Shown piece after piece: positions 13,820 through 31,986 of a stretch of DNA of 32,000 nt (the first letter of the stretch is position 1; the number at the start of each line of letters is the position of its first letter). The notes beneath the pieces are model-generated. The model was not told where the DNA came from. It ran no database searches and saw only the letters and a list, made by a program, of their open reading frames with translations. The translations under genes and the position numbers were made by a program. This DNA comes from Trichlorobacter lovleyi SZ (lineage in GTDB: Bacteria > Desulfobacterota > Desulfuromonadia > Geobacterales > Pseudopelobacteraceae), in assembly GCF_000020385.1 (NCBI RefSeq), contig NC_010814.1:1530001-1562000 (forward strand), in the 5' to 3' direction.

Positions 13820-13835
13820 ATCAAGAACCGTGCCG
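13820..13835 (-). promoter_or_regulatory. Sigma-54-like -24/-12 element upstream of the Cys-rich/TonB/NosL/ABC operon
   Basis: The minus strand reads CGGCACG-GTTC-TTGAT. The GG-to-TTG spacing matches TGGCACG-N4-TTGCW, but -12 has GA instead of GC. It ends about 28 nt upstream of ATG 13791, leaving room for a short leader with AGGAG. It is part of a 19-mer repeated at 17032..17050. Confidence 0.5.
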
Positions 13836-13897
13836 TTGGTGCTAAGTGTCTGATATTAAACGTTTGTTTAAATGTTGTTGAGTTGGTTGGTTTTTTG

Positions 13898-13917
13898 TTG
13901 TCTTATTTTGAGACAGG
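13898..13917. promoter_or_regulatory. Inverted-repeat motif TGTCTTA-TTT-TGAGACA (candidate activator binding site / UAS) in the divergent intergenic region
   Basis: TTGTCTTATTTTGAGACAGG is 16/20 identical to 16897..16916. It lies about 70 nt upstream of the -24 element at 13835 and about 60 nt upstream of the kinase start. Confidence 0.4.
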
Positions 13918-13973
13918 CGTTATGGTGCTCACACACGTAGCGTATCCTTGCCTTTCATGACAGGTCAGCGACT

Positions 13974-16891: not shown

Positions 16892-16916
16892 GACAGCTGT
16901 CTCATCTTGAGATAGG
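16889..16916. promoter_or_regulatory. Perfect 16-bp palindrome TGAGACAGCTGTCTCA overlapping the regulator stop codon, extended by TCTTGAGATAGG (candidate UAS and/or terminator hairpin)
   Basis: Read directly from the sequence. 16897..16916 (CTGTCTCATCTTGAGATAGG) matches 13898..13917 at 16/20 positions. It lies about 130 nt upstream of the 17035 element. Confidence 0.45.
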
Positions 16917-17034
16917 CCGTATCATCCCGCCCCCTGTCTATGGGGCAACGGGGGGCTGTTGAAAGGCCTCAACATACGTCTGTAGCAGTATTGTCCGCGG
17001 TCTTGTGCATGCTGCAGGTGTATCGTTTGCACAA

Positions 17035-17050
17035 CGGCACGGTTCTTGAT
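17035..17050 (+). promoter_or_regulatory. Second copy of the sigma-54-like element CGGCACG-GTTC-TTGAT
   Basis: The same 16-mer as at 13820..13835; the full 19-mer caacggcacggttcttgat spans 17032..17050. It ends 12 nt before ATG 17063, which would imply a nearly leaderless transcript or a different role such as an operator. Confidence 0.4.
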
Positions 17051-17062
17051 TGTGATGCCGGT

Positions 17063-17515
17063 ATGTCCAGTCCCGCATCACATACCTGTTGCCGCCCCGA
17101 TTGCCTCTGTGACCGGGTCCTGATCGTCGATGACGAGCCGGGCATCCTGTTTGCCTATCGCAAACTGCTGGAACAGAAGGGGCTGGTTGTTGATAGCTGT
17201 GACTGTCTCTGCGAGGCGCTCGACTATCTGGAAAAGCATCATTATCTGGCCGTGGTCGCCGATATGCGCTTGCAGGGTACCGATACCATGGACGGCCTGG
17301 ATCTGGTTCGGGAGGTACGCCGGCGTCAGCCCGCAGCCGGAATTATTGTCGCATCCGGCACCAGCGACCAGAAGACACGTCAGTCCGCGTCCGAGCTGGG
17401 GGTTGATCACTACCTTGAAAAACCGATCCATCCCTCCCGTATCCTTGATCTGTTGATTCAACTTCGAAATACCGTTCATGGCGAAGAGCTGCTGCCCGCC
17501 CCTGAAACAGGGTAG
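17063..17515 (+). CDS. Single-domain (REC-only, CheY-like) response regulator with a short Cys-rich N-terminal extension
   Basis: RVLIVDDEPGILFAYRKLLE...AVVADMRLQG...IIVASG...HYLEKP. N-terminus MSSPASHTCCRPDCLCD. The start is uncertain: ATGs at 16940 and 17009 are in frame but would place the 19-mer inside the CDS. Confidence 0.75.
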   Translation: MSSPASHTCCRPDCLCDRVLIVDDEPGILFAYRKLLEQKGLVVDSCDCLCEALDYLEKHHYLAVVADMRLQGTDTMDGLDLVREVRRRQPAAGIIVASGTSDQKTRQSASELGVDHYLEKPIHPSRILDLLIQLRNTVHGEELLPAPETG

Positions 17516-17531
17516 ATCGTTATGCTGAATT

Positions 17532-17639
17532 TTCCTTCTCCCTGTGGGGGAAGGTGGCCGAAGACCGGTTGAAGGGGCAGCAACGGCTTGAAATGAGCCT
17601 CTTTCTCCTCACCCTGGCCCTCTCCCCAGGAAGAAGGAA
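17532..17639. repeat. Imperfect inverted repeat (~18-nt arms) flanking ~70 nt in the leader of the FKBP gene
   Basis: The left arm is ttccttctccctgtggggg. The reverse complement of the right arm (17622-17639) is ttccttcttcctggggag. An inner ggggaaggtggcc / ggccctctcccc pairing is also present. Confidence 0.35.
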
Positions 17640-17668
17640 TTTACTACCTCCGGAAAGGATGACCCGTT

Positions 17669-18331
17669 ATGAGACCGTTGCTTGTCCTGGCTGTTCTGGC
17701 CGTTGCTACCCAGGCCTGTGCCCTTGAGCCACCCAAAACTGAAGAACAAAAGACCCTGTATGCCATTGGCCAGACCGTGTCACGCCAGTTGTCGGTCTTT
17801 AATCTGAGCGCGGATGAATTCCAGTATGTGCTGCTGGGCCTGACCGATGCCCAATCCGGCAATAAGGCGGCGGCAGAGCCTGCCCAGTACAACCGTAAGA
17901 TTCAGGAACTGGCCCGGTCCCGCCGGGCTGCCCATGCCCAGAAGCTTGGCCCGGCCAACAAAGAAGCCCTTGAAAAAGCTGCCAAGGAGCAGGGGGCCGT
18001 CAAGAGCGCCTCAGGGCTGATCTACCTTCCGGTGAAGGAGGGGAACGGCGCGCAACCGAAGCTGACCGATACGGTACGGGTCAATTACCGCGGTATCCTC
18101 GTTGATGGCAAAGAGTTTGACAGTTCCTACAAACGGGGCAATCCACTCGAGTTTAAGCTGGATAGCGTCATTAAATGCTGGACTGAAGGGGTACAGAAGA
18201 TGAAGGTGGGGGGGAAGGCAAAGCTGACCTGCCCTGCCGCACTGGCCTATGGTGAACAGGGAGCCGGCGACCTTATTCTGCCGGGTGCTACCCTCCAGTT
18301 TGAGGTTGAATTGCTTGATATCAAAAAATAA
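17669..18331 (+). CDS. Periplasmic FKBP-type peptidyl-prolyl cis-trans isomerase (FkpA/Mip-like, with N-terminal dimerisation helix region)
   Basis: Signal peptide MRPLLVLAVLAVATQACA. FKBP core VRVNYRGILVDGKEFDSSY...FKLDSVIKCWTEGVQKMKVGGKAKLTCPAALAYG...LQFEVELLDI. Confidence 0.95.
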   Translation: MRPLLVLAVLAVATQACALEPPKTEEQKTLYAIGQTVSRQLSVFNLSADEFQYVLLGLTDAQSGNKAAAEPAQYNRKIQELARSRRAAHAQKLGPANKEALEKAAKEQGAVKSASGLIYLPVKEGNGAQPKLTDTVRVNYRGILVDGKEFDSSYKRGNPLEFKLDSVIKCWTEGVQKMKVGGKAKLTCPAALAYGEQGAGDLILPGATLQFEVELLDIKK

Positions 18332-18355
18332 CCGTTGTCCGAACGGAGTGTCCCC

Positions 18356-18937
18356 ATGAAACGTCATCTGTCCCGGTTGATCTGTCTGCTGCTGTTTCTG
18401 CCGGTTTTAATGGTTTGTGCTGCATCCCCTGCCATGGCTGCACCGGTTACCTACAAGCGAACCGTTGAAAAGTATCAGGTGCCGGATGTGATTCTGACCA
18501 ACCAATTCGGCAAAAAGGTCCGGCTGAAGACGTTGCTGGAGTCCGGGCGTCCGGTGGCCGTTGATTTTATCTATGCCACCTGTACCACCATCTGTCCGGT
18601 GCTTTCCGCCGGGTATACCAATCTGCAACGAAAACTGGGGGCGGACAGTGTCAAAGTGCAACTGGTCTCCATCACCATTGACCCGGAAAATGATAATCCG
18701 AAGGTTCTCAAGGAGTATCTGCAACGCTACCAGGCCAAACCGGGGTGGGATTTTCTGACCGGTAGCCGGAAGGATATTGACCGGGTCATGCATGCCTTTG
18801 ACGCCTATTTCCGCGACAAGATGGACCATAAGCCGCTCACCTTCATACGGGGGGCGGATGGCTCCTGGATCAGGCTTTACGGTCTGATCAGCAGTAGTGA
18901 ATTTCTGGCAGAATACAAAAAAGCGGGGCTCCTATGA
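18356..18937 (+). CDS. SCO1/SenC-family thioredoxin-fold copper chaperone
   Basis: Start moved to MKRHLSRLI (GGAG 8 nt upstream). CxxxCP motif (ATCTTICPV), SITIDPENDNP, WDFLTG, and a downstream His (MDHKPL). Confidence 0.9.
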   Translation: MKRHLSRLICLLLFLPVLMVCAASPAMAAPVTYKRTVEKYQVPDVILTNQFGKKVRLKTLLESGRPVAVDFIYATCTTICPVLSAGYTNLQRKLGADSVKVQLVSITIDPENDNPKVLKEYLQRYQAKPGWDFLTGSRKDIDRVMHAFDAYFRDKMDHKPLTFIRGADGSWIRLYGLISSSEFLAEYKKAGLL

Positions 18938-20625
18938 CACTACGTACGAAACTGCCGGCAGAACAGGTCTTAATGGTGCTGTTGAGTATAGCTCTCTGTC
19001 TTGCCCTGGGCGCAGCTGCCTGGGCTGCCCCTTCAGACGAAACCATGCGGTTCGGGGAGCAGATGTACCGCAAAGGGCTGCTCCCCTCCGGGGCTCCCAT
19101 CAAGGCCTATGTCAGCGGCGATGTGCCGGTGGACGGCACATCGTTCACCTGCGTCAGTTGCCATCTGCGCAGCGGACTCGGCTCTATTGAAGGGGAGGTC
19201 ATCACGCTACCGACCAACGGGAGGATCCTGTATCAGCCGAGAAGGCCGTTTATCCCCGGCTCCGAGTTTGTTCCTTCCTACTCCAACTATGCAAAATACC
19301 TGCCGGAGCGTCCTGCCTATACCGACGATTCGCTGGCTGCGCTGATCCTGACCGGTATTGACCCCACCGGCCGGTCGGTTCTGAAGGTCATGCCCCGTTA
19401 CGACCTGGGCGACAAGGATATGGCGATTATGATCAGCTATCTGAAATCACTTTCTGATCAGCCGCCTCCCGGCGTGACCAAAGAAGAGATCAGGTTTGCC
19501 ACGGTCATTGTTGAAGGGACTGACCCGGTTGCGGTGCAGTCGATGCTGGCCCCCCTGCAGTTCAGTATTGACCGCAAGAACAGCCTGGCTACCGCCGCAG
19601 TGAAAAATCATCGTGTGGCGCGGATGGGCTACAACATGCTGGGAGATCTTTCCGCCCTCAAATTTTCACTGTCACGCTGGACGCTCAAGGGGGCTCCGGC
19701 AACCTGGCTGTCTCAGCTGGAAGAATACTACCGCAAGGAGCCGGTCTTTGCCTTGCTGGGTGGTATCTCGGAAGGGGAGTGGGAGCCGGTGCACCGCTTC
19801 TGCGAAGAGAAAAAGATCCCCAACCTGTTTCCGGTTGTAGACTACCCGGTACTCTCGGATACAGACTGGTATACCCTCTATTTCTCGCGTGGGGTCCGCC
19901 AGGAGGGCGAAGCTGCGGCCCGCTATCTGCACGGCATGGCCGAGCTGTTTAAAGGCAGGCCGGTACTGCAGCTGTACCGGGCCGGTCGCAAAGGGCAGGC
20001 CCTGGCAGCAGGATTCAGGGAGTCCTGGAAGACTGCCGGTGGTGGTGCGATAACAGAGGTCCGTCTGCCTGCCAATGAAAAGCTGACGGCAAAAAAGGTA
20101 CGGCAACTGGTTAACCGGAAAAATCCGGCAGCCCTGGTTCTTTGGGATGATGCAGCGTCACTGCCGGCACTGTCAGGGCTGGCAGCGCAGAAAAAGCGGC
20201 CCGGTCTGGTCCTTGCCTCCGGCACCTATCTGGGCAAGGCGCTGTGGACGATCCCGGAAGAATTGCGAGCTCTGCTCTATCTGACCTACCCCTATCGCCT
20301 GCCCCAGGAGGACAGCCGCTTTGACGTCAATGTCAAGCGGGTGCTGCAGGGTAGACCACTTGAACTGTATGAACAGAGGATCGTCAGGCAGTCCTATCTT
20401 ACCGGCGAAGTGCTTGGCAAGGCGTTGATGATGATGCGCGGCGAATATTACCGCGATTACCTGTATGATGTGATCGGTATGATGTCGGACATGCACTACC
20501 CCCTGTATGAACGGGTCAGTTTCGGGCCGGGCCAGCGCTATGCCTCCAAGGGCTCCTATATTGTGCAGTTGGGCAGTGGCAGGAATCCCGTGCTCGAACG
20601 CCGCAGTGAATGGGTAATACCGTGA
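18934..20625 (+). CDS. Fusion protein: monoheme cytochrome c domain plus type-1 periplasmic solute-binding (LivK-like) domain
   Basis: ATGA overlap with the SCO1 stop. Signal peptide. A single CVSCH heme motif with a candidate axial Met (KVMPRY). The C-terminal ~380 aa resemble branched-chain amino-acid type binding proteins (alternating beta-alpha pattern, KKIPNLFPV...). Confidence 0.8.
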   Translation: MTLRTKLPAEQVLMVLLSIALCLALGAAAWAAPSDETMRFGEQMYRKGLLPSGAPIKAYVSGDVPVDGTSFTCVSCHLRSGLGSIEGEVITLPTNGRILYQPRRPFIPGSEFVPSYSNYAKYLPERPAYTDDSLAALILTGIDPTGRSVLKVMPRYDLGDKDMAIMISYLKSLSDQPPPGVTKEEIRFATVIVEGTDPVAVQSMLAPLQFSIDRKNSLATAAVKNHRVARMGYNMLGDLSALKFSLSRWTLKGAPATWLSQLEEYYRKEPVFALLGGISEGEWEPVHRFCEEKKIPNLFPVVDYPVLSDTDWYTLYFSRGVRQEGEAAARYLHGMAELFKGRPVLQLYRAGRKGQALAAGFRESWKTAGGGAITEVRLPANEKLTAKKVRQLVNRKNPAALVLWDDAASLPALSGLAAQKKRPGLVLASGTYLGKALWTIPEELRALLYLTYPYRLPQEDSRFDVNVKRVLQGRPLELYEQRIVRQSYLTGEVLGKALMMMRGEYYRDYLYDVIGMMSDMHYPLYERVSFGPGQRYASKGSYIVQLGSGRNPVLERRSEWVIP

Positions 20626-20642
20626 AAAGAAAAGAGGATATT

Positions 20643-20993
20643 ATGATCAGACAAGGCATCCTGGCACTGTTGGCTCTGTTTCTGTTGCTGGCGCCTGCTG
20701 CAGATCTGTTGGCTGCCGCTGCAGATGTGACGATCTACATCGTGAGCGATTATCGTTATCTGCCGGGTAAGGCAAAAGGCGACCCGGTAATGGGACAGTC
20801 TCTGTGCGGTACCCGCTGTAATGCCCTTTCAACCAATTATCTGAATATTGTCGAGCCTGGCGGTTGGCGTCTGATCAAAGTTGCCGGCGGACGCGTATTG
20901 ACCGTACCACTCAATAATCCTTTCATGGGGGGGGATTGCGTCTGTGTCGTGGACGAATACATGGTGAAGGTCGATCATCTCAACAAACCGTAG
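20643..20993 (+). CDS. Small secreted hypothetical protein with four Cys
   Basis: Start moved to MIRQGILALLALFLLLAPA (AGAGGA RBS). 116 aa. Cys positions: CGTRC and GGDCVCV. No family recognised. Confidence 0.6.
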   Translation: MIRQGILALLALFLLLAPAADLLAAAADVTIYIVSDYRYLPGKAKGDPVMGQSLCGTRCNALSTNYLNIVEPGGWRLIKVAGGRVLTVPLNNPFMGGDCVCVVDEYMVKVDHLNKP

Positions 20994-21040
20994 TTTTTTC
21001 TCAGTCCTTCCGGATTTCCCACCCCAGTCTCACCTCCGTC

Positions 21041-21081
21041 GCACTATGAGACAGATACAAATCGTATCTGTCTCATAGTGC
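21041..21081. promoter_or_regulatory. 41-nt perfect hairpin/palindrome (18-bp arms, 5-nt loop) carrying TGAGACA...TGTCTCA; terminator of the upstream operon and/or UAS for the downstream sigma-54 promoter
   Basis: gcactatgagacagatac (21041-21058) is the exact reverse complement of gtatctgtctcatagtgc (21064-21081). Its centre lies about 90 nt upstream of the GG of the 21151 element. Confidence 0.6.
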
Positions 21082-21150
21082 ATCTACATCCCCCTTTTTA
21101 AGCCGGTCAATTTTGCAAAGTTTTGAGTTGTTTCGGGCTGTTTCGCGTGT

Positions 21151-21166
21151 CGGCATGCTCTTTGCT
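21151..21166 (+). promoter_or_regulatory. Sigma-54 promoter candidate upstream of the small-protein / multicopper-oxidase pair
   Basis: CGGCATG-CTCT-TTGCT shows the correct GG-N10-GC geometry against TGGCACG-N4-TTGCW. It lies about 125 nt upstream of ATG 21292. Confidence 0.6.
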
Positions 21167-21291
21167 CGGTAGTAAATAAGTCAAGTTCTATGCTGCTGAA
21201 ACCGTTGGTAAAATAATAATTTTTTAATGTTGTTTGAAAGGCTGCCTGAACCGGATACCCATCGCTCGGATCAATGAAAGGAGCATGCATC

Positions 21292-21555
21292 ATGAAAATC
21301 CCGACAACACTCGTAACTGGAGTACTGATGGCCGCGCTGCTCGCTGTGACGGCATCGGCAGAAGCCCAGCTGCAAAAGCGTCAGCCGGTGCAGTTGAATC
21401 CGGCGGTAAACAGCAAGGTGCCGCAGGCCCAGAAGGCCACCGTGCAAAAGCGTGAGCTGGCACGACAACAGCGTGACAAGAAGCTGAAGGTGAGGGCAGC
21501 TAACACGCAGAGAAAAGGCGGTCCGACCTCGCTTCCGAAACCTGTGCATCGGTAG
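21292..21555 (+). CDS. Small secreted, highly basic Lys/Gln/Arg-rich hypothetical protein
   Basis: Start moved to MKIPTTLVTGVLMAALLAVTASAEA (AAGGAG 8 nt upstream). The mature part is low-complexity (QKRQPVQ...KKLKVRAANTQRKGG). No family recognised. Confidence 0.55.
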   Translation: MKIPTTLVTGVLMAALLAVTASAEAQLQKRQPVQLNPAVNSKVPQAQKATVQKRELARQQRDKKLKVRAANTQRKGGPTSLPKPVHR

Positions 21556-21623
21556 CGGAACACATGATTCGAGGAGATGGTAACGACATTTGAACAAACT
21601 GTAGTAGTCAACTGGAGGCGCGT

Positions 21624-24600
21624 ATGAACAAGCGAACATTACGAAGTCGAATGACAGCCCTGCTGTCCGGCTTGGCCCTGATTATGGGGCTGGGTACGGC
21701 GCAGGCCTACCTGAGCCCGGATTATTCGAATCCGGCCTATGCTCCGGGAGGGGCAACGCCCTTTGTGATCGGGCCGGGAAATACCCCGGATTACCTGACC
21801 ACCCCCAACTGGGCCTACACCCCCCCGATCCGCAAGTTTGTCGATACCCTGCCGGGACTGGGTGCCGCAAACGTCAACAACCTGGGACAGTATATCCCGG
21901 TTGCAGTGCCGGATATCGTGACCTATCCCGGTTCCGACTACTACGAGATAGAGCTGCGTGAGTTTTCGGAGAAGGTGCATTCCGATCTGCCACCTACCAC
22001 CATGCGGGCCTATCGTCAGGTAAATGCCGGTACGGTCACGACATCCTGTACCGATCCGGCACTCAGTCAGCCCAATCCCTGTACCGAGGCCAACAACACC
22101 GCACAGGTTGAAGCCAACCCGCGCCAGTTCGGACCGGTCATCGTTGCCCAGAAAGACCGGCCGGTACGGATCAAGTTCATCAACAGCCTGCCGACCGGTT
22201 CCGGGGGTGACCTGTTCATCCCGGTCGACCAGACCATCATGGGGGCAGGCCCCTTCCAGATTGATTACGATCCGGTCACTAAGCAGCCGATTCAGGTTAC
22301 CTCCGGCACCTTTAGCCAGAACCGTGCAGAACTGCACCTGCATGGTGGTCGCACTCCCTGGATCAGTGACGGTACCCCCCACCAGTGGATTACCCCTGCG
22401 GGGGAGGTAACCAGTTATCCCACCGGTGTCAGTATGACCAACGTGCCGGATATGCCTGACCCCGGTCCAGGCGCCCAGACCTACTACTATACCAACCAGC
22501 AAAGTTCCCGCCTGATGTTCTACCACGACCACAGCTGGGGTATTACCCGACTTAACGTCTATGTGGGCGGCGCTGCCGGCTATGTTATCCGTGATGCTGT
22601 AGAACAGCAGCTGATTGCCGACGGCAAAATCCCTGCTGAAGAGATTCCGTTGATCATTCAGGACAAGACCTTTGTGGATGGCGACCCGGCATCGCCGACC
22701 TATGTGCTGAAGACCGACCCGACCTGGAAATGGGGCACCGGTACTATCGGCAGTAACGGCTTCCGTATCCCCCAGAGCGGTGATCTGTGGTGGCCTCATA
22801 TCTATATGCCGGCCCAGAACCCCTTTGATATCACCGGTATCGCTCCGATGGGGCGTTGGGCCTATGGTCCCTATTTCTGGCCGGCCACCCCTAACCCGTA
22901 TCAACCGATTCCCAACCCCTACTATAGCCCGGACTGCGTGCCCGGCGGTGATCCTGCAACAACCCCCGGACTTTTGGGTGGCCCCTATGGCGACTTCTGC
23001 CAACCACCTGAAATTCCTGCAACGCCTAACCCTTCCTGGGGCGCTGAAGCCTTTATGGATACCCCGACGATTAACGGTACCGCCTATCCGGTGCTGACGG
23101 TTGAGCCGAAGGCCTACCGCTTCCGCATTCTGAATGCGGCCCATGACCGTTTTGTAAACCTGCAGTTGTATAAAGCGGACCCGGCCCCGGCGCCTCTGGA
23201 TTACAGCGGTGCATTTCCCCCCTCCTGTACAAGCTATACGGCACCGGGCTATGGTGGATTCAGCGGCATCTGTGCCAGCAATACAGAAGTCAAAATGGTA
23301 CCTGCTCAACCGGGTGGTGTCGGCAAACCAGCCACCTGGCCGGAAGACGGCCGTCCTGGTGGCGTGCCTGACTGGAACACCGCCGGTCCCAACTGGATCA
23401 TGATCGGCAGTGAAGGCGGTTTCCTGCCCAGGCCGGTAGTGTTGCCGCCGCAACCGCTTAACTGGAATGCCGATGTGACCACCTTTAACGCAGGTAACGT
23501 CAACACCGGTTCACTGATCCTTGCCCCGGCAGAGCGGGCAGATGTTATTGTTGATTTTTCCGGTATCCCTTCGGGTACCACCCTGATCCTGTATAACGAT
23601 GCCCCGGCACCATGGCCGGCCCTTGACCCCCACTATGATTACTATACCGGTGCCCCGGACAACCGTGCCATGGGTGGTGCTGATACCACGCCGATCGGTT
23701 TTGGTCCCAACACCCGTACCCTGATGCAGATCAAGGTGCAGGGCACCCCTGCAGCTACCTTTAACGTGGCAGCACTGAACGCCGCCTTTACACCGTCTAC
23801 CCCCGCTCTTGGCGTATTCCGGCAGTCGCAGGAGTCTCTGGTTGTGGGGCAGGGCAACATGAACCCCACCGGCGATCCTGCCTACTATGAGGCCTTTGCC
23901 TTTGACGGCGTTGCCTATGACGCGCTTAACACCATTTACGGTACCGCCTTTGCCACCACCTTCCCCAACTGGGGGGTGTCGCGGATCAATGACAAGGAGA
24001 TCAGCTTCAAGACCATCAACCCTGACGGCACTGTCAACCCGACGGTTCAGACGGTTACCATGAAGCTTAAGGCCATTCAGGATGAACAGGGTGAAACCTT
24101 TGACGACTACGGCAGGATGCGGGCCGCCCTGGGGCTGACCCTGTCCAACCCGGCCGCCGGCCAGGTGAACTTCATTGTCCAGACCTACAGCGACCCCTCA
24201 ACAGAGGTGCTGGCCGAGGAAGGTATTCAGGTCTGGAAGATTACCCACAACGGTGTGGACACTCACCCGATTCACTTCCACCTGTTTGATGTGCAGATCC
24301 TGAACCGGGTAGGCTGGGACGGCTTCATCCGTCTGCCCGACCCAACCGAACTGGGCTGGAAAGAAACCGTCCGGGTCAGCCCGCTGGAAGACACCATCGT
24401 TGCCGTGCGCCCGGTCAAACCAATGCTGCCGTTCGGTATTCCGAACAGTGTACGTCCACTTAATCCGGCCACCCCGCTGGGCGATGCGACCGAGCTTTCC
24501 ATGATAGATCCAACCACCGGTCAAGCCTGGGGCACCCCCAACGTTAACAGGATTCTCAACCTCGGTTGGGAGTATGTCTGGCATTGTCACATCCTGAGTC

Positions 24601-26429
24601 ACGAAGAAAACGACATGATGCGGCCGATTTCGTACAATCCGGGGGTCACCATTCCGGATGCACCCACCGCTCTGGCAACCAACGCCTTATTCATTGACGG
24701 TAATGTTACCCTGACCTGGGTTGACCCGACTCCCAAGGCTGCCTCTACAACCATGGGCAACCCCAAGAACGAGATCAACTTCATTATTGAACGTTGTTCC
24801 GGTCTTGACTGCAGCAACTTCGTAGCGGTCGGCACGGCCCTGGCCAATGCCACCAGCTTTACAGACACAACCGTAACAGCTGGTACGCAGTATCGCTATG
24901 CCGTTGCAGCCTACAACGCAGCAGGCACCTCAACTCGATCAAATATTATTAGTGTAACCGCAGTGCAGGCCCCAACCGTAGACTTGACAAGCCCAACAAA
25001 CGGCACCGTGTATTGGCCGGGAACAACTATCCCCTTGGCTGCCACTGCTACAGCGCCAAATGGATCAACCATTACCAAGGTTGAGTTTTATGACGGCACG
25101 ACACTGCTGAGTACAGATACCAGTTCCCCTTATTCGTACAACTGGGCAACAGCAACCTCAGGCAGCCATAGCTTGACCGCCAAGGCCTATGCAAGTAACG
25201 GGGCGGTGGTAACGTCAAGTGCGGTTGCTATATCGTTAACAGCTCCTGTTAGTAGTGCTACGCTTAGTGCTACCCCTTCTAGTCCTCAGACAGTTGGCGT
25301 TGCCCAGGTAGTCTTTAATGCGACAGCCAGCGGTGGAAGTGGTTCGTATGAGTACAAATTTATGCAGAAGATTGCAGGTGTTTGGACAACAGTGCAGGAT
25401 TATGGTGCGGCTTCTTCGTATACTTGGAATTCGTCTTTACAACCCACAGGTACATATGGTTTCCAAGTTTATGTACGCAATGCTGGTGCAACTAATGCCT
25501 ATGATGTGGCAAAAGCGATGGGCTATACCATTAATGCAACAGCAGTTAGTGGTGCTACGCTTAGTGCTACCCCTTCTAGTCCTCAGACAGTTGGCGTTGC
25601 CCAGGTAGTCTTTAATGCGACAGCCAGCGGTGGAAGTGGTTCGTATGAGTACAAATTTATGCAGAAGATTGCAGGTGTTTGGACAACAGTGCAGGATTAT
25701 GGTGCGGCTTCTTCGTATACTTGGAATTCGTCTTTACAACCCACAGGTACATATGGTTTCCAAGTTTATGTACGCAATGCTGGTGCAACTAATGCCTATG
25801 ATGTGGCAAAAGCGATGGGCTATACCATTAATGCAACAGCAGTTAGTGGTGCTACGCTTAGTGCTACCCCTTCTAGTCCTCAGACAGTTGGCGTTGCCCA
25901 GGTAGTCTTTAATGCGACAGCCAGCGGTGGAAGTGGTTCGTATGAGTACAAATTTATGCAGAAGATTGCAGGTGTTTGGACAACAGTGCAGGATTATGGT
26001 GCGGCTTCTTCGTATACTTGGAATTCGTCTTTACAACCCACAGGTACATATGGTTTCCAAGTTTATGTACGCAATGCTGGTGCAACTAATGCCTATGATG
26101 TGGCAAAAGCGATGGGCTATACCATTAATGCAACAGCAGTTAGTGGTGCTACGCTTAGTGCTACCCCTTCTAGTCCTCAGACAGTTGGCGTTGCCCAGGT
26201 AGTCTTTAATGCGACAGCCAGCGGTGGAAGTGGTTCGTATGAGTACAAATTTATGCAGAAGATTGCAGGTGTTTGGACAACAGTGCAGGATTATGGTGCG
26301 GCTTCTTCGTATACTTGGAATTCGTCTTTACAACCCACAGGTACATATGGTTTCCAAGTTTATGTACGCAATGCTGGTGCAACTAATGCCTATGATGTGG
26401 CAAAAGCGATGGGCTATACCATTCAATAA
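21624..26429 (+). CDS. Giant secreted multicopper oxidase (Geobacter OmpB-like) with FN3, Ig-like and four identical C-terminal Y_Y_Y-like repeat domains
   Basis: GGAGG RBS and a signal peptide. The four canonical MCO copper motifs are present: HLHGG, YHDHSWG, HPIHFHLFD, WHCHILSHEENDMM. An FN3-like block (LTWVDPTP...TQYRYAVAAYNAAGTS), an Ig-like block (KVEFYDGTTLLSTDTSSPYSYNW), then 4 x 99 aa repeats (SGSYEYKFMQKIAGVWTTVQDY...). Confidence 0.95.
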   Translation: MNKRTLRSRMTALLSGLALIMGLGTAQAYLSPDYSNPAYAPGGATPFVIGPGNTPDYLTTPNWAYTPPIRKFVDTLPGLGAANVNNLGQYIPVAVPDIVTYPGSDYYEIELREFSEKVHSDLPPTTMRAYRQVNAGTVTTSCTDPALSQPNPCTEANNTAQVEANPRQFGPVIVAQKDRPVRIKFINSLPTGSGGDLFIPVDQTIMGAGPFQIDYDPVTKQPIQVTSGTFSQNRAELHLHGGRTPWISDGTPHQWITPAGEVTSYPTGVSMTNVPDMPDPGPGAQTYYYTNQQSSRLMFYHDHSWGITRLNVYVGGAAGYVIRDAVEQQLIADGKIPAEEIPLIIQDKTFVDGDPASPTYVLKTDPTWKWGTGTIGSNGFRIPQSGDLWWPHIYMPAQNPFDITGIAPMGRWAYGPYFWPATPNPYQPIPNPYYSPDCVPGGDPATTPGLLGGPYGDFCQPPEIPATPNPSWGAEAFMDTPTINGTAYPVLTVEPKAYRFRILNAAHDRFVNLQLYKADPAPAPLDYSGAFPPSCTSYTAPGYGGFSGICASNTEVKMVPAQPGGVGKPATWPEDGRPGGVPDWNTAGPNWIMIGSEGGFLPRPVVLPPQPLNWNADVTTFNAGNVNTGSLILAPAERADVIVDFSGIPSGTTLILYNDAPAPWPALDPHYDYYTGAPDNRAMGGADTTPIGFGPNTRTLMQIKVQGTPAATFNVAALNAAFTPSTPALGVFRQSQESLVVGQGNMNPTGDPAYYEAFAFDGVAYDALNTIYGTAFATTFPNWGVSRINDKEISFKTINPDGTVNPTVQTVTMKLKAIQDEQGETFDDYGRMRAALGLTLSNPAAGQVNFIVQTYSDPSTEVLAEEGIQVWKITHNGVDTHPIHFHLFDVQILNRVGWDGFIRLPDPTELGWKETVRVSPLEDTIVAVRPVKPMLPFGIPNSVRPLNPATPLGDATELSMIDPTTGQAWGTPNVNRILNLGWEYVWHCHILSHEENDMMRPISYNPGVTIPDAPTALATNALFIDGNVTLTWVDPTPKAASTTMGNPKNEINFIIERCSGLDCSNFVAVGTALANATSFTDTTVTAGTQYRYAVAAYNAAGTSTRSNIISVTAVQAPTVDLTSPTNGTVYWPGTTIPLAATATAPNGSTITKVEFYDGTTLLSTDTSSPYSYNWATATSGSHSLTAKAYASNGAVVTSSAVAISLTAPVSSATLSATPSSPQTVGVAQVVFNATASGGSGSYEYKFMQKIAGVWTTVQDYGAASSYTWNSSLQPTGTYGFQVYVRNAGATNAYDVAKAMGYTINATAVSGATLSATPSSPQTVGVAQVVFNATASGGSGSYEYKFMQKIAGVWTTVQDYGAASSYTWNSSLQPTGTYGFQVYVRNAGATNAYDVAKAMGYTINATAVSGATLSATPSSPQTVGVAQVVFNATASGGSGSYEYKFMQKIAGVWTTVQDYGAASSYTWNSSLQPTGTYGFQVYVRNAGATNAYDVAKAMGYTINATAVSGATLSATPSSPQTVGVAQVVFNATASGGSGSYEYKFMQKIAGVWTTVQDYGAASSYTWNSSLQPTGTYGFQVYVRNAGATNAYDVAKAMGYTIQ
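25248..26424 (+). repeat. Tandem repeat, ~3.96 copies of a 297-bp unit, nucleotide-identical between copies apart from the first few bases of copy 1
   Basis: gttagt(a/g)gtgctacgcttagtgc recurs at 25248, 25545, 25842 and 26139. I compared copies 1 and 2 base by base and found them identical. The four identical out-of-frame 96/82-aa ORFs in the track at 297-bp spacing confirm copies 3 and 4. Confidence 0.95.
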
Positions 26430-26453
26430 TGCAATAAAATCGAGTTTTTCATG

Positions 26454-26484
26454 GTGAGTGGCCTTTGGGCCACTCACGATTTTT
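26454..26484 (+). terminator. Rho-independent terminator after the multicopper oxidase gene (shared convergent gene end)
   Basis: A 10-bp stem (gtgagtggcc / ggccactcac) with loop tttg, followed by gaTTTTT. The stop codon of the convergent sugar-transferase gene lies inside the 3' arm. Confidence 0.75.
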
Positions 26485-27082
26485 CGTCAAAAAAGATTGT
26501 TTTAAATGTTGCTAAAATCAGTTTGAAATCTATCCAAAGTGATCGGCTTGTCGTATAACGTTGATAGTATGCAAGTTTGACTGGTAAAATTTCCTCAATG
26601 TATGCTTTGTCTGGATCTTTAGCCCGTCCTAGAATCGCGTTTTCGTCTTTGTATTCAATTGATGCATAATCGGTAATGCCGGGGGGGACAGACAACACGA
26701 GATCGCGAACTTCGGGAGGGTACATTGCAACATAGCGGGGAACTTCGGGACGCGGACCGACCAAGCTCATTTCTCCCCAAATGACATTCAGCAGTTGTGG
26801 AAGTTCATCCAGCTTATAATGCCTGAGAAATCGGCCAGAGCGGGTGATGCGTGGGTCTTCGCCGACTGTAATCTGCCTGCCTTTGGCCTCTGCATCCAGA
26901 CACATGGTTCTGAATTTGAATATACGAAAGGGCTTGCCAAACCTGCCGACCCGCTCTTGTCGGAAAAATACCGGCCCATGGCTATCAGACTTTATCCAAA
27001 AACTTATGAATAAAAAAAGAGGAGCTAACAAGACCACCCCAAGGAAGGAAAAGAAAAGGTCAAAGAGACGTTTTAGTAGCAT
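26474..27082 (-). CDS. Small monotopic phosphoglycosyl (undecaprenyl-phosphate sugar-1-phosphate) transferase, PglC/WbaP C-terminal-domain type
   Basis: MLLKRLFDLFFSFLGVVLLAPLF..., PVFFRQERVG..GKPF.IFKFRTM, DELPQLLNVIWGEMSLVGPRP: the bacterial sugar transferase signature. Confidence 0.9.
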   Translation of the reverse strand: MLLKRLFDLFFSFLGVVLLAPLFLFISFWIKSDSHGPVFFRQERVGRFGKPFRIFKFRTMCLDAEAKGRQITVGEDPRITRSGRFLRHYKLDELPQLLNVIWGEMSLVGPRPEVPRYVAMYPPEVRDLVLSVPPGITDYASIEYKDENAILGRAKDPDKAYIEEILPVKLAYYQRYTTSRSLWIDFKLILATFKTIFFDEKS

Positions 27083-27214
27083 GTTGTATACTCACCGAGA
27101 TACGCTTAGCCATAATGGCTGCCAGTTGAAATAAGTAGACCTGTCCCTTGCAAACGTGGGTTAAGCTGGGAACGAGAGATTCACAGCACAGAGCCACATC
27201 CAAGGAGGCAGGTC

Positions 27215-27403
27215 ATGGAAAAGTCTATCACGTATGTTGGGCTTGATGTTCACAAAAACTCTATTGATGTCGCTTTGGCCGATGAAGGCCGTGACAAGGA
27301 AGTCCGTTACATTGTGGTTGCCCCTTCTCTGATTCCCAAGAAGAGCGGCAGCCGAATAAAGAATGATCGTCGTGATGCTGACGTTAACCCAGAATCTCCT
27401 TGA
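27215..27403 (+). mobile_element. IS110-family transposase remnant (internally deleted and 3'-truncated)
   Basis: The 62-aa ORF joins the IS110 N-terminal motif (ITYVGLDVHKNSIDVALADEGRDKEVRY) directly to a mid-protein motif (VVAPSLIPKKSGSRIKNDRRDA), then ends. A full-length protein would be about 340 aa or more. It overlaps the 3' end of the aminotransferase gene. Confidence 0.7.
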
Positions 27404-28535
27404 CTGTCCGAATTACTCGGTTCTGGTCATCATCAGACATTTTTGTGTAGAGCGGCAGGCTCACTGCCTGCTCATAGGTGTGAAGCGCACAAGGGAAATC
27501 CTCCGGTTGCAGGTTGTAACGGTCACGCCAGTAGGGATGCAGATGCAGCGGAATAAAATGGACGCTGCAGCCGATCCCTTTTTCAGCCATCAGCTCGATG
27601 AAGCGGTCGCGGCTAACCGGGGCGTCGTCTGTTAAACGGATAACATACAGGTGCCATGCGTGGGTATCACCGGACGGCGCATGGGGTGGTAGCAGCAGTG
27701 GCAACCCCTGTAATGCCTCGTCATATCCTGCTGCCATGGTCTGACGTTTTTGCTGAAACAGATGTGCCTTGTGCAACTGGTGAATACCCAATGAGGCCGC
27801 AATATCAGTCATATTATACTTATAACCGGGGGCTATTACCTCGTAATGCCATGAGGGTTTGGTGGAGGTATACCGATCAAAGGCATCTCGGCTGATGCCA
27901 TGCAGGCGCATCACCCGGCAGCGCTTTGCCAACTCAGGATTTCTTGTAACGATCATCCCTCCCTCGCCAGTGGTGATGGTCTTGGTGGCATAAAAGCTGT
28001 ATACGGTGACATCGCTCGCTAGTGTACCAATCAGCTGACCGTTACAGGTGGTAGGTAGGGCATGGGCTGCGTCCTCAACCACCTTTAGGTTATGCCTGCA
28101 GGCAATGGACAGGAGTACATTCATATCACAGGAAAGCCCTGCAAAATGCACCGGGACAATCGCCTTGGTGCGGGGTGTAATAGCTGCCTCGATCTTGGTC
28201 GGATCGATGTTATACGTGTTCGGATCACTATCCACAAACACCGGGTCAGCACCCAGATAGCGGATAACCTCTGCCGTGGAAGTAAAGGTGTAGGGGGTGG
28301 TGATTACCTCATCCCCGGGCCCAATACCAACCGCTTCCAGCGCCAGATGCAGACCGGCAGTGGCCGAGTTGACCGCAATCGCCTCTACCCCGTTGCCCAC
28401 AAAAGCTGCAAACTCTTCTTCAAAGCGCTTTGTCTTGGGGCCGGTCGTCAGCCAGCCGGAGCGAAGCGAATCAAGGGCTTCGTTAATTTCTTCCTCGCCG
28501 ATATCAGGGAGAGCAAAGGGGAGAAATGTATTCAT
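27384..28535 (-). CDS. DegT/DnrJ/EryC1/StrS-family nucleotide-sugar aminotransferase (PLP-dependent)
   Basis: Start moved to [16 protein letters not shown] (GGAGG 7 nt upstream). Motifs: [25 protein letters not shown], and the catalytic-Lys region [14 protein letters not shown]. Confidence 0.9.
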
Positions 28536-28555
28536 AAAATTACCTCCGATATCAG

Positions 28556-28744
28556 TAGTGGCTTGGATGAACTTTGTACTCGCTGGCAAGCTCTGCCAGC
28601 GCCTTGGATTCGGTCAAAGCTGCCAAAAGGCTGCCTTGGCTTTGAATTCTAAACTGTAACGGTTGCGGTGCCGCATGGGACCTCTCCTTTCAAAGGGATC
28701 GGTTCATTGCTTATACTCATGTCTCAAAAACCGCAACCACTTCA
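28556..28744 (-). mobile_element. IS3-family left-end remnant: terminal inverted repeat plus the frameshifted first ~40 codons of orfA
   Basis: The minus strand begins TGAAGTGGTTGCGG... (IS3/IS911-like TG... terminus) at 28744. After a GGAGAGG RBS comes ATG 28676, encoding MRHRNRYSLEFKAKAAF. After a -1 slip in a T-run it continues [21 protein letters not shown] (HTH_Tnp_1-like). It ends abruptly at about 28556. Confidence 0.55.
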
Positions 28745-29011
28745 GTTTTGGATTGCCAGGTTGGTGTAGATGAACTCAGCCGGATAGGTGTTGTTGGCGT
28801 GGATGCCCCTCACCTTGGCCGCTGCCAGAAAGACATACTCCGGTTTTTCTTGGGCAAAGAATTTTGCCACTGCCTGCTGGTTGGTAAGGTCCAGTTTATC
28901 CATTTCAGGGGTAAGCAGGTTCAAGTAGCTGGCCGCTTGCAGGCACCGTACAAGAGCAGAGCCTACCAGCCCTTTGGAACCGGCGATGAATATTTTTGTA
29001 GTCTTATTCAT
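28742..29011 (-). pseudogene. fcl: Truncated GDP-L-fucose synthase (fcl/wcaG), N-terminal ~89 codons only
   Basis: [22 protein letters not shown]...[30 protein letters not shown] matches the Rossmann N-terminus of Fcl, which is about 320 aa full length. The reading frame stops at the TGA that is also the first triplet of the IS3-like end. The start overlaps the gmd stop by 8 nt. Confidence 0.75.
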
Positions 29012-30086
29012 TATAGTCAAACGCCCGGTAGCCGTGCTTTTTGACCAGTTCATCCCGTTCAGCCGCCTTCAGATCTTCACGAACCATTTCGGCAACCAGT
29101 TCCTTAAAGCTGATCTTCGGCGTCCAGCCCAGTTTCTCACGGGCCTTGCCCGGATCTCCCAGCAGGGTTTCGACTTCAGTGGGACGGAAGTAACGGGGAT
29201 CAACCCTGACAATCACTCTACCGCTCTGGTCGGTACCGGTTTCATCGACGCCGCTGCCCTGCCAGCTGATTTTCATCCCAAGTTCTTCAGCGGCGGTATT
29301 GACGAACTCTCTGACGCTGTGCTGGATACCGGTGGCAATGACCCAGTCTTCAGGGTGCTCCTGTTGCATCAGCAGCCATTGCATTTCGACATAGTCTTTG
29401 GCATGGCCCCAGTCCCGCAGGGAGTCAAGGTTGCCCAGGTAGAGGCAGTCCTGAAGCCCCAGTTTGATCCGGGCCAGGGCACGGGTGATCTTGCGGGTGA
29501 CAAAGGTTTCTCCCCGTAACGGTGATTCGTGGTTGAAGAGGATGCCGTTGCAGCCGTAGATGCCGTAGGCTTCGCGGTAGTTGACGGTGATCCAGTAGGC
29601 GTAGAGTTTGGCTACGGCATAGGGGGACCGGGGGTAGAAGGGGGTGGTTTCCTTCTGGGGGATTTCCTGGACCAGGCCGTAGAGTTCGGAGGTGGAGGCC
29701 TGGTAGAAGCGGGTCTTTTTCTCAAGCCCCAAGATCCGGATCGCCTCCAGAATCCGCAAGGGACCGATGGCGTCGGCATTGGCGGTGTATTCAGGGGTCT
29801 CAAAGGAGACGGCAACATGGGACTGGGCTGCCAGGTTGTAGATCTCGTCCGGTTGCACGGCCTGAATGATCCGGATCAGGTTGGTGGAGTCGGTCATGTC
29901 ACCGTAGTGCAGGACCAACCGGCGCCCCTTTTCATGGGGGTCCTGGTAGAGGTGGTCAATCCGGTCGGTGTTGAACAGGGAGGCACGCCGCTTGATGCCG
30001 TGGACCTCATACCCCTTCTCAAGCAGCAGTTCGGCCAGATAGGCCCCATCCTGCCCGGTGATGCCGGTGATTAATGCCTTTTTCAT
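29004..30086 (-). CDS. gmd: GDP-mannose 4,6-dehydratase
   Basis: Start at [30 protein letters not shown] (GGAG upstream). Classic Gmd blocks: [50 protein letters not shown]. Confidence 0.95.
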
Positions 30087-30111
30087 AGCAGCTCCATTTT
30101 CAAAATACAGG

Positions 30112-30732
30112 CTAAAGACCATCAGTAAGCTGTATCCAATACTCGTTCATACGACGACCCTCAGGCGTTTCGTATTGGCGCTCAATTGTAAAACCTAGTT
30201 TTTGGTAAAAAATATTAACAGATTCATTGTTGTCGCGGTCGGTTGTCAAGAAGACCCGCTTACAGCCACGTCTTTTAGCTGTCTCAAGAAAGGCATTGAC
30301 CAGAATTTTTCCGGCACCTGTGCCTTGTAGTTCGGGGCTTACGCCGATTGAAAAAAGTCCGGCTACATCGTTGCCAACCGGGTTTCCGGAGGGGTGTAAC
30401 AAGCCGCGAGCTATTCGTCTCATCGCAGACGGCCTGGTTATGACAGTACCAAGCGAAGCAAAAGCAAATTTCAACCAGTCTCGCTTTAAAAGGCGTGAAT
30501 AAAACCCTCTTGGGTTTGTTGACCCTGCAACAAACCCAAGAGGCATCCCTGAGTCGTTCAAATATACGAAAGCAATGCTCTCTGTCGCAGTGCAGATACC
30601 CGAATAATATAGAGCTAGAAAACGAGGACCAAGTGAGGAAAGAAAAAAACTGGGAAAACTCGTCAGATGAGTTTGAACCACTGCCGGAATATGTTTACGA
30701 CTCATGACAAGCAGCTTATCAGTATTCATCAT
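30112..30732 (-). CDS. GNAT-family N-acetyltransferase
   Basis: 206 aa. Acetyl-CoA binding block [30 protein letters not shown]...NIFYQKLGF. Confidence 0.8.
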
Positions 30733-30735
30733 GCA

Positions 30736-31986
30736 TCACCATAAGTTAATTCTGCCTGCAGCGGACATGATTGCGTCAGCAAGGCGTCGCACTCCTTTCT
30801 GCTTAGAATAGAAGTTTTTAGCAAAAATCTGGCCGTTTGCCCCTAAGGTAACTAGCTCACACTGCGGAGTTATGATAACCTCTTGCATCTTTTTAGCCAA
30901 CCAACAAATATCCTCAGGGGGGCCGACCCAGCCACATTTGGCCTGTCTGATAAGAGAAGCTGTATCGCTTTCTTCATCTACTGTTGCCAATACAGGTTTT
31001 CCAGAGAAGAGATAAGCTGGAAGTTTGGAAGGAATAGAGCTCATAGCAGAACCATGCTTCATGGGTAACATAAAAATATCAGCCATGCTCTGCAGCAAGG
31101 GAACGTTAGCGGCATCGGGATCCTGAATAAAGTGTATATTTTGAGCGCCGAGATTAAGGCTAAACTCAATACATCTAATACGTTCAGATCCATCTCCTAC
31201 AATTATCAGTTGAGCCTCCTTAAGGCCGGATTCATAAAAGGCTCGAATCAAAAAATCAACCCCAGCAACGGGACCTATGTTGCCAAGATACAGAAAAGTA
31301 AAAAGATCATCTCGCATTGTATATTGCCGACAGGCCAGCGTACGGTTATTGGATACATTGAACAACGAATCATCCTGCCAAGTTGGGATGAGCTTTACAA
31401 CTTCACCAGGCAGCTTTCTTGTCTGAGTATAACTGCGTCGCATGTTTTCAGAAATTACAACTACTGATTTTGCACATTTGGCAATCTGAGTATCCAGATA
31501 CAGAAGAGATCCCGCCACAACTGTTTGCGCCCAAACCGGAAGTTTATGAACAAGCGATTCAGGGTAAATATCCATAATCTGCAGGACTGTCGGTATTCCG
31601 ACTTTATATGTGTACCGCATGATAAGTGCTTGTGCAAGCAATGGCCAACTGTTTAGATATATGGCATCAGGCTTCTCATCGCACTTTTTTAGATAACAAC
31701 ATACATGACGGCCAAAGCTCCAACTTTCAGCAAGCCTTGGTAACAAGCGAGATGTGGGACAGCGATACGAGGGTAAACGGACTACCTCAACGCCAGCTTC
31801 AAGAGTCGTTACATTATCTGGAGATTGTAGAGTTTGATAGTCTGCTGTAACTGGACGTGAAGGCTGTGGCGCAAGCACGGTCACGCTTGTTCCCTGTTGA
31901 ATAAGACCTAAAGCAAGATCTTGGGCCATTCTAGCAGAGACCACCGGCTCGGGGGGATAGACTGCGGTGATAATAACAATGTGCAT
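30736..31986 (-). CDS. Family-4 (GT-B, WcaI-like) glycosyltransferase
   Basis: 416 aa. N-terminus MHIVIITAVYPPEPVVSARMAQDLA is typical of WcaI-like GT4 enzymes. C-terminal half has the nucleotide-sugar binding pattern (LGNIGPVAG..., IVGDGSE..., SKLPAYLFSGKPVLA). Confidence 0.85.
   Translation of the reverse strand: MHIVIITAVYPPEPVVSARMAQDLALGLIQQGTSVTVLAPQPSRPVTADYQTLQSPDNVTTLEAGVEVVRLPSYRCPTSRLLPRLAESWSFGRHVCCYLKKCDEKPDAIYLNSWPLLAQALIMRYTYKVGIPTVLQIMDIYPESLVHKLPVWAQTVVAGSLLYLDTQIAKCAKSVVVISENMRRSYTQTRKLPGEVVKLIPTWQDDSLFNVSNNRTLACRQYTMRDDLFTFLYLGNIGPVAGVDFLIRAFYESGLKEAQLIIVGDGSERIRCIEFSLNLGAQNIHFIQDPDAANVPLLQSMADIFMLPMKHGSAMSSIPSKLPAYLFSGKPVLATVDEESDTASLIRQAKCGWVGPPEDICWLAKKMQEVIITPQCELVTLGANGQIFAKNFYSKQKGVRRLADAIMSAAGRINLW

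Follow-up and report, generated by a model that had tools for sequence, protein, structure and literature searches.

The alpha C and Rib proteins of group B streptococci are the classic identical-repeat surface proteins, whose size varies by homologous recombination between the repeats. The Periscope Proteins include SasG, Rib, Sgo_0707, CdrA, and inverse autotransporters (Whelan et al. 2021, PMC8201768; reviewed in PMC9704523), and in this class high DNA identity of tandem folded domains accompanies variation in repeat number (PMC8201768; PMC9704523). The operational screen for them asks for repeats of more than 50 residues with at least 80% identity (PMC8201768). OmpB, a homologue of Leptothrix MofA, is an outer-surface oxidase required for Fe(III)-oxide reduction, and it has been proposed to help attachment to Fe(III) oxide via its FN3 domain (PMC5566968). 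Features of both systems come together in the locus described here. It lies in a stretch of 32,000 nucleotides (nt) of Trichlorobacter lovleyi SZ (contig NC_010814.1, positions 1,530,001 to 1,562,000 of the forward strand), called the window below, and consists of a gene for an OmpB/MofA-family multicopper oxidase that ends in four tandem, almost DNA-identical Y_Y_Y domains. Positions given for this gene and its neighbors are those of the window.

What does the array look like at the DNA level? Tandem Repeats Finder reports a single tandem array at 25248-26423, with a period of 297, 4.0 copies, 99% matches, 0 indels, and a score of 2345. The initial annotation, made from the letters alone, had placed four copies of 297 base pairs (bp) at 25248, 25545, 25842, and 26139 and had called them DNA identical save for one base early in copy 1 and the end of copy 4. 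The repeat finder and a copy alignment return exactly these starts, and the identity is borne out by the alignment and by a direct periodicity test. In that test each base equals the one 297 positions further on at 872 successive positions (25255-26126), which amounts to 1,169 bp of perfect period-297 DNA (25255-26423), a perfection that cannot be put down to chance. The sole internal mismatch among the four copies is in column 7, where copy 1 has A (25254) and the others have G (25551, 25848, and 26145); the result is Ser in copy 1 and Gly in copies 2 to 4. Copy 4 departs only from column 286 on, its final 12 nt (ACC ATT CAA TAA) spelling ...TIQ-stop versus ...TINATA elsewhere. The unit length is a multiple of three, as also claimed at the outset (297 = 3 x 99), and the array is in frame within an open reading frame (ORF) of 1,601 amino acids (aa) at 21624-26429 on the + strand. 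The C terminus of the oxidase coincides exactly with the end of the last Y_Y_Y domain (...GYTIQ-stop). A series of repeated + strand ORFs in another frame (25318-25608, 25615-25905, 25912-26202, and 26209-26457; 82 to 96 aa) was set aside as mechanical by-products of the repeat, not genes.

The resemblance of the unit to the Ig-like Y_Y_Y domain, noted in the initial annotation, holds up in the profile comparison that it proposed. A single unit matches Y_Y_Y (PF07495) in Pfam at 33.5 bits versus a gathering threshold of 26.6 (E 4e-8), and the whole oxidase scores 89.9 bits over four stretches (E 1e-25). An AlphaFold2 model of two units, built from an alignment of 28 unit pairs, predicts two 7-stranded beta-sandwiches of the Ig/FN3 kind (pLDDT 95.9, pTM 0.77), with a linker of about 5 residues (NATAV) between the last strand of unit 1 and the first strand of unit 2. 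The best Foldseek matches in the PDB are tandem FN3 pairs of contactins, neogenin/DCC, cytokine receptors, and phage tail-tip proteins, and the predicted architecture is a generic beads-on-a-string one. In Periscope Proteins, rod-like stalks come from short linkers combined with domain termini that lie at opposite ends. The operational Periscope screen picks the array up: its units are 99 aa long, 99 to 100% identical, and predicted to be discrete sandwiches.

How do such arrays behave across the oxidase family? Units were surveyed in 121 proteins, the 120 best homologues plus the window protein. Between 1 and 12 Y_Y_Y units occur in 46 of the 121, always as the last module, and 36 proteins end exactly with a unit. 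For most of the 38 multi-unit proteins, the nearest neighbor of each unit is a unit of the same protein. Mean within-array identity runs from 0.36 to 0.99, with the window array at the top of the range; it is the most extreme sampled case of homogenization in the family. At the DNA level, arrays that are 99% (L083; 297 bp x 2.9, in a 5.25-Mb contig), 97% (L084), 93% (L085; in a 4.2-Mb chromosome record), and 93% (L003) identical are found elsewhere. With near-identical arrays in four other lineages and units that cluster by protein, in situ amplification or homogenization is therefore recurrent for this tail type. The initial annotation had read the perfection of the repeat as recent expansion or continuous homogenization, and the same-protein nearest neighbors, the position of the window at the top of the range, and the 93 to 99% DNA arrays in four other lineages all speak for it. 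The range of 1 to 12 units is variation between lineages, not between strains with the same unit. The closest relatives of the window unit are four diverged units of protein P0073, at 56 to 64% BLASTP identity and 0.54 to 0.62 in the unit alignment.

Another T. lovleyi assembly (GCA_050171295.1; JBNLSA010000027.1, hereafter L086) has a scaffold gap of 100 N at 12260-12359 of its record, inside the Y_Y_Y array of the orthologous oxidase. The gap is flanked by near-identical DNA (58 nt with one mismatch), and the protein is annotated as "partial." A Gln is the last residue in 13 of the 36 Y_Y_Y-terminated family proteins, the window protein (...GYTIQ) included, and a Pro in 11 of them; at the position of the terminal Gln, internal units have Asn, Thr, or Pro and then the linker. 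A C-terminal sorting motif built on these Gln and Pro ends was considered and is too weak to call a signal.

The head of the protein is a multicopper oxidase, as first annotated. Pfam finds Cu-oxidase_2 at 37.6 bits versus a cut-off of 20.4, and the four copper motifs of three-domain multicopper oxidases (HxH, HxH, HxxHxH, and HCHxxxH...M) are present as HLH238, HDH301, HPIHFH (HFH884), and HCHILSHEENDMM (HCH987). The translation opens with a signal-peptide-like segment (MNKRTLRSRMTALLSGLALIMGLGTAQA/Y). BLASTP identity to the Geobacter sulfurreducens homologue is 64% over 76% of the query, or 70% in the core of roughly 1,070 aa. The cluster to which that homologue belongs (P0010) holds AAR34770.1 of strain PCA, which we infer, via PMC5566968, to be OmpB (GSU1394). 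By analogy with G. sulfurreducens OmpB, the window oxidase would be secreted to, and loosely bound at, the outer surface. Giant multicopper oxidases homologous to it occur in Geobacter, Desulfuromonadales, and many other anaerobes, and the best core identity among GTDB species representatives is 55 to 68%. After the core, a match to fn3 at aa 1075-1111 is weak (16.8 bits, below the cut-off of 25), and Big_7 matches strongly at aa 1117-1186 (nt 24972-25181; 65 bits versus a cut-off of 24.1). The FN3-like segment, including LANATS...YNAAGTS, is conserved in all relatives compared, many of which have a precomputed PF00041 match. In one G. sulfurreducens genome (P0149/P0150, P0010 cluster), the OmpB homologue is present as two proteins of 1,080 and 212 aa, split at about the boundary between core and tail.

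Where does the tail come from? The window is 97.1% DNA identical over 13.2 kb to one related locus (L001) and 93.9% to another (L002), and both similarities end at 24858, inside the FN3-like domain. A four-way DNA alignment locates the break at the codons for LANATS. To the left of them, L001 and L002 match the window at 93 to 94% identity and L086 at 61 to 69%; on the right (24859-25205), the match to L086 rises to 84% in an ungapped stretch, and the window is no longer related to L001 or L002. The window and L086 proteins are accordingly very similar over the end of the FN3-like domain and Big_7. Past about 25205, where the Y_Y_Y part starts, the window diverges from L086 also. LANATS is conserved family-wide, and 12 of 12 family members examined can be split there. 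The proteins of L001 and L002 (P0001 and P0002) have cores 96% identical to that of the window and nonhomologous tails of the InlB-B-repeat/Flg_new type (27% and 25% identity). Since all five of the closest cores (P0001 to P0005) carry an InlB-type tail, the Y_Y_Y tail is the derived state here.

Cores and tails part company elsewhere in the family as well. Identity is 49% in the core and 55% in the tail between the window protein and P0038, and 51% and 72% between P0001 and P0098; P0008, P0009, and P0011 share cores at 98% and tails at 37 to 52%, and P0098 and P0099 share a core at 87% and a tail at 50%. These comparisons indicate that whatever follows the FN3-like domain can be exchanged as a module and has an evolution separate from that of the core. 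Composition follows the same boundaries. GC content at third codon positions (GC3) falls from 0.67 in the window core through 0.47 in the Big_7 patch to 0.33 in the array, and the InlB tails of L001 and L002, included as a contrast, match their cores. The comparison took in the window, L003, L008, L083, L084, L085, L086, and L087, and in nine of nine Big_7/Y_Y_Y tails examined GC3 is 0.18 to 0.34 below that of the protein's own core, whatever the GC content of the host. Judged by alignment and composition, then, the array closes a recombined tail cassette of foreign composition, a point absent from the initial annotation.

One broader speculation, which we consider doubtful, is that the tails of OmpB/MofA oxidases form a horizontally circulating pool of low-GC cassettes (Y_Y_Y, Big_7, InlB, and others), swapped at a LANATS hotspot that borders the variable glycan locus, with arrays tuned in length in situ, so as to fit the oxidase to the surface layer of the strain or to its mineral. 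If true, the pool would be a contingency system for the hardware of extracellular electron transfer.

How might the array have arisen, and what might it do? We put a probability of roughly 0.65 on the reading that it is a homogenized four-unit Y_Y_Y array, amplified or converted in situ, which ends the swapped-in tail of a secreted OmpB/MofA-type oxidase and serves as a stalk or anchor. The proposed course has four steps. (i) As one tail cassette, the second half of the FN3-like domain, Big_7, and Y_Y_Y units would have replaced an InlB-repeat tail through a crossover in LANATS. (ii) The copies would have been homogenized by in situ amplification or gene conversion, whether through unequal homologous recombination or through replication slippage between 297-bp direct repeats. 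(iii) General knowledge of recombination and the Periscope literature suggest that RecA-dependent unequal exchange or slippage would occur at appreciable frequency between identical 297-bp repeats; each event would gain or lose one domain of about 4 nm in frame, and the population would hold tail-length variants. (iv) The array would act as a beads-on-a-string stalk or a multivalent anchor; the way in which the oxidase head is placed within or beyond the glycan/extracellular polymeric substance (EPS) layer, or on minerals, would then depend on array length or valency. The junctions and edges of the array bear on the second step. At least two units must have existed before homogenization, because the interior junction (...TINATA/VSGATLS...) cannot come from duplicating a lone TIQ-stop unit. 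Homogenization spared no more than the outermost 7 nt and 12 nt, which would be expected of unequal crossing over or gene conversion, in which the edges of an array take part least.

Several results weigh against this reading. A search of 5.8 billion proteins with a single unit returned 6 word-sharing candidates, none of them significant, and no close relative. In metagenome contigs of the JGI, a scan with back-translated peptides confirmed none among the 600 pattern matches listed, and a degenerate 57-nt pattern for YEYKFMxKxxxxWTTVQDY had 0 matches. No sequence with another copy number of the window unit was found in the protein collection or in those contigs, and the number four lies beyond what the short-read contigs described below can confirm. 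The surface location is extrapolated from OmpB of G. sulfurreducens, which has another kind of tail (choice-of-anchor D type). No anchor (LPXTG, PEP-CTERM, T9SS CTD, or barrel) was found before or after the array with Pfam and NCBIfam, and Foldseek against the PDB gave generic tandem FN3/Ig matches only, with no clue to a ligand. Finally, the glycan genes next to the oxidase were not co-inherited with the Big_7 patch, to judge from L086, which weakens, without refuting, a link between tail and glycan. A further protein search, with Big_7 plus one unit, retrieved only short Big_7 fragments from unrelated proteins. The window unit is effectively unsampled elsewhere.

Does the number of units set reach or grip? 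Each Y_Y_Y domain might bind a repeating ligand, such as the cell's own O-antigen or EPS or a mineral, so that copy number tunes avidity, not reach. This alternative is compatible with the stalk-or-anchor reading, from which it differs only in what copy number tunes, and we regard it as rather unlikely. It draws on the location of the oxidase, which adjoins a polysaccharide-synthesis locus in the window and in six of the seven homologous loci with neighbors listed; between the window and L086, however, tail type and glycan genes are not co-inherited. The array stands at a free C terminus with no anchor after it, OmpB is proposed to aid attachment to Fe(III) oxide via its own FN3 domain (PMC5566968), and some Periscope array domains also bind ligands, according to the authors (PMC8201768). 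Against binding stand the generic FN3 pairs returned by Foldseek and the failure to detect a binding site or any similarity to carbohydrate-binding modules.

Alternatively, the array may be a neutral and transient duplication, the product of a very recent accident of unequal recombination, with a tail length that is immaterial and a copy number that drifts or decays. The continuum of within-array identity down to 0.36 looks as if arrays arise and then diverge, and the unit itself is otherwise unsampled. Yet the interior junction calls for at least two earlier units followed by homogenization, and intact, in-frame arrays of 1 to 12 units are kept in 46 of 121 family members, always closing the protein cleanly. 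High identity recurs independently in at least five lineages, which looks like a maintained property, and highly identical adjacent domains are generally disfavored in multidomain proteins (PMC8201768). Neutrality seems unlikely.

Could the repeat be a product of assembly? The strain is present in three sequencing runs (SRR253106, SRR13429082, and SRR29904083), and two short-read contigs in Logan, from different runs, touch the array from either side. Contig L089 (SRR253106) equals window positions 11084-25284 save for a single-base indel in a run of G near 23971-23976, and contig L088 (SRR13429082) equals positions 26146-27381 at 100% identity. L089 stops 30 nt past the A that is specific to copy 1 (25284 = 25254 + 30), and the terminus of L088 (26146) lies 1 nt to the right of the equivalent of column 7 in copy 4. 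The Logan contigs presumably come from a de Bruijn graph with k = 31. Such a graph must branch at both contig ends if the unit stands in more than one context and its copies are otherwise identical. With contigs that end at the limits of perfect periodicity, copy identity is therefore not a polishing artefact. The short-read contigs thus give independent support to copy identity, to the 5' junction of Big_7 with unit 1, and to the 3' end, but not to the copy number of four. The initial annotation had named an assembly artefact as a threat to the repeat, and for copy identity the two contigs, breaking at the edges of the periodicity, argue against it. The sole difference between the window and L089 (SRR253106_373) in 14.2 kb is that the window has G6, with an intact ORF, and the contig G5; the latter is a frameshift that splits the oxidase into 812 plus 408 aa, and it is either a sequencing error or a real frameshift.

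That the true locus has fewer, more, or diverged units, from which an assembler or short-read polisher made four perfect copies, is very improbable. In favor of it, a 1.2-kb array of identical 297-bp units is unresolvable by short reads, the related T. lovleyi assembly has its scaffold gap at the same place, and an exact look-up of the window oxidase in the protein collection returned no entry and hence no second full-length assembly with four copies. Against it, the contigs match both flanks (one homopolymer indel apart), and their ends lie where they would be expected only with copies that are identical in the raw reads and stand in two or more contexts. Several unrelated assemblies, the Mb-scale records of 5.25 and 4.2 Mb among them, also have near-identical arrays, and the oxidase gene is an intact, in-frame gene with a terminator after it. 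In practice this calls for caution: short-read genomes and metagenome-assembled genomes will contain truncated, gapped, or collapsed versions of such oxidase genes, as the T. lovleyi assembly and the Logan contigs do.

Table 1. Features of the oxidase gene and its surroundings, in window coordinates
Feature	Coordinates	Strand	Basis or remark
FKBP peptidyl-prolyl isomerase, MofB-like	17669-18331	+	Pfam
SCO1/SenC copper chaperone	18335-18937	+	Pfam
MofC-like protein, one CXXCH (CVSCH at aa 73) and periplasmic-binding domain (Peripla_BP_6)	18934-20625	+	Pfam, motif
OmpB/MofA-family multicopper oxidase gene	21624-26429	+	1601 aa; ORF, Pfam, copper motifs, BLASTP
Catalytic core and first half of FN3-like domain ("native" part)	21624-24839	+	DNA identity to L001/L002; GC3 0.67
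Putative recombination junction, codons L1073-A-N-A-T-S1078 (CTGGCCAATGCCACCAGC) in FN3-like domain	24840-24857	+	Four-way DNA alignment
Second half of FN3-like domain, Big_7, and linker	24858-25247	+	Resembles T. lovleyi JBNLSA010000027 tail; GC3 0.47
Y_Y_Y unit 1	25248-25544	+	aa 1209-1307; differs from other units only at 25254
Y_Y_Y unit 2	25545-25841	+	Identical to unit 3
Y_Y_Y unit 3	25842-26138	+	Repeat analysis and copy alignment
Y_Y_Y unit 4 and stop codon	26139-26429	+	Same as units 2 and 3 to 26423; then TIQ-stop, no NATA linker
Terminator-like hairpin	26454-26477	+	10-bp stem, 7 G-C pairs, then T-run; between oxidase and convergent sugar-transferase genes
Surface-polysaccharide genes, convergent with oxidase	26474-31986	-	Pfam
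Bac_transf	26474-27082	-	Pfam
DegT aminotransferase	27384-28589	-	Pfam
GDP-mannose-dehydratase-like gene	29004-30122	-	Pfam
GNAT	30112-30732	-	Pfam
GT4 glycosyltransferase	30736-31986	-	Pfam

The neighborhood of the oxidase (Table 1) is also familiar. Clusters of the OmpB/MofA type hold a copper chaperone, a MofC-like cytochrome c/periplasmic-binding protein, and a MofB-like isomerase (He et al. 2017, PMC5566968), and by its gene content the window oxidase sits in just such a mofB/SCO1/mofC-like operon. Two NosL genes, an ABC/FtsX pair, and a TonB-dependent receptor come farther upstream, as does a PAS kinase with a sigma-54 regulator. The ABC ATPase, the FtsX permease, the two NosL copper-chaperone-like genes, and the TonB-dependent receptor (7862-13153, - strand) suggest a module that supplies the oxidase with copper; in L084, too, the oxidase homologue has NosL and FtsX as neighbors. 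The regulator genes are 88% DNA identical (97% and 91% in protein) to those of T. lovleyi JBNLSA010000027 and stand in the same gene order. Between the window (17669-24857 and its flanks) and L086, the flanking regulators have 81 to 97% protein identity, and between them lie FKBP at 62%, SCO1 at 60%, the MofC-like protein at 43%, and the oxidase core at 49%. It seems from this pattern that the accessory genes and the core were replaced as a block in one of the two lineages.

Downstream of 24858 the window has no DNA similarity to L001 or L002; the variable region, to which the glycan genes belong, starts inside the oxidase gene. GC3 is 0.38 to 0.44 in three of the five glycan genes. Co-transfer of the tail together with the glycan genes was considered and rejected: Bac_transf, DegT, and GT4 have only 23 to 41% protein identity to L086, despite the 84% DNA identity of the Big_7 patch.

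Two further genes of the window may be mentioned. A second in-gene tandem duplication lies at 2995-3489 (261 bp x 1.9 copies, 95% identity), inside an ORF at 1498-3879 on the - strand. The product of that ORF has 793 aa, with an MG2 domain, two CHB_HEX_C_1/Fn3_assoc pairs, and multiheme cytochrome c domains, and from these domains it would seem to be a second surface redox protein whose Ig-like modules are duplicated. At 4288-6705 (- strand), adjoining this cytochrome gene, is an 805-aa secretin (Secretin, Secretin_N, and FecR_C) with a C-terminal cohesin domain, an unusual combination.

Why does the tail of such an enzyme matter? Geobacter requires OmpB-type oxidases to reduce insoluble Fe(III) oxide, and among the relatives of these enzymes are candidate Mn/Fe oxidases. 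One common type of tail on them is a homogenized domain array with a probably labile copy number. Tail length and tail type thereby become testable variables in enzyme positioning, in attachment to minerals or EPS, and in strain differences in extracellular electron transfer, which should be of use both to that field and to the study of surface-protein evolution. A limited search of the OmpB literature found no description of tail modularity or identical-repeat tails in OmpB-type oxidases.

How, then, does the window oxidase compare with the systems already described? With OmpB and MofA it shares a core (70% identical to the G. sulfurreducens protein), the four copper motifs, and, behind the core, what appears to be an FN3-like domain, along with accessory genes for SCO1/SenC, a MofC-like cytochrome/binding protein, and an FKBP isomerase, as in mofB (PMC5566968). 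The tails differ: that of the G. sulfurreducens protein is a 244-aa choice-of-anchor-D type with no Y_Y_Y, and that of the window protein is Big_7 plus four Y_Y_Y domains. Fe(III)-oxide reduction and Mn oxidation, the functions associated with this group, are candidate functions for the window protein. Y_Y_Y domains are otherwise known from hybrid two-component sensors and "triple tyrosine motif" proteins (NCBIfam PRK14081). The window units resemble these in their above-threshold Pfam match and predicted Ig-like beta-sandwich, but they are not attached to a beta-propeller sensor and form a homogeneous tandem array that terminates an oxidase.

The alpha C and Rib proteins likewise have DNA-identical tandem repeats of about 240 to 300 bp, each encoding one Ig-like domain. 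They are Gram positive, LPXTG anchored, and under immune selection, none of which applies to the window oxidase. The likeness to the Periscope Proteins goes further. In both cases a secreted single chain has its functional part at the N terminus, followed by tandem folded domains of about 50 to 165 residues, mostly E-set beta-sandwiches; the domains are almost identical in DNA, the linkers are short, and the array length is made up of whole domains, which would allow copy number to change in frame. The differences are 3-fold. (i) The head is a redox enzyme, not an adhesin, and it belongs to a metal-respiring diderm of the environment rather than to a pathogen. (ii) The array is at the very C terminus without a wall or membrane anchor, whereas canonical members are anchored opposite their functional domain. 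(iii) Variation in repeat number has been seen between strains there, and the window unit is known from one copy number. The Periscope review recognizes an enzyme-bearing, anchor-less subset with repeat variability "not yet defined" (PMC9704523). By analogy, the window oxidase would work like a Periscope Protein and fits this subset, though not as a canonical member. The array is a tail, probably variable in length, of a type already known from bacterial surface proteins, not a new principle; what the comparison of sequences adds to the initial annotation is the apparent exchange of cassettes at LANATS, on the edge of a variable glycan locus. The locus extends the Periscope type of architecture from the adhesins of pathogens to a redox enzyme of the environment.

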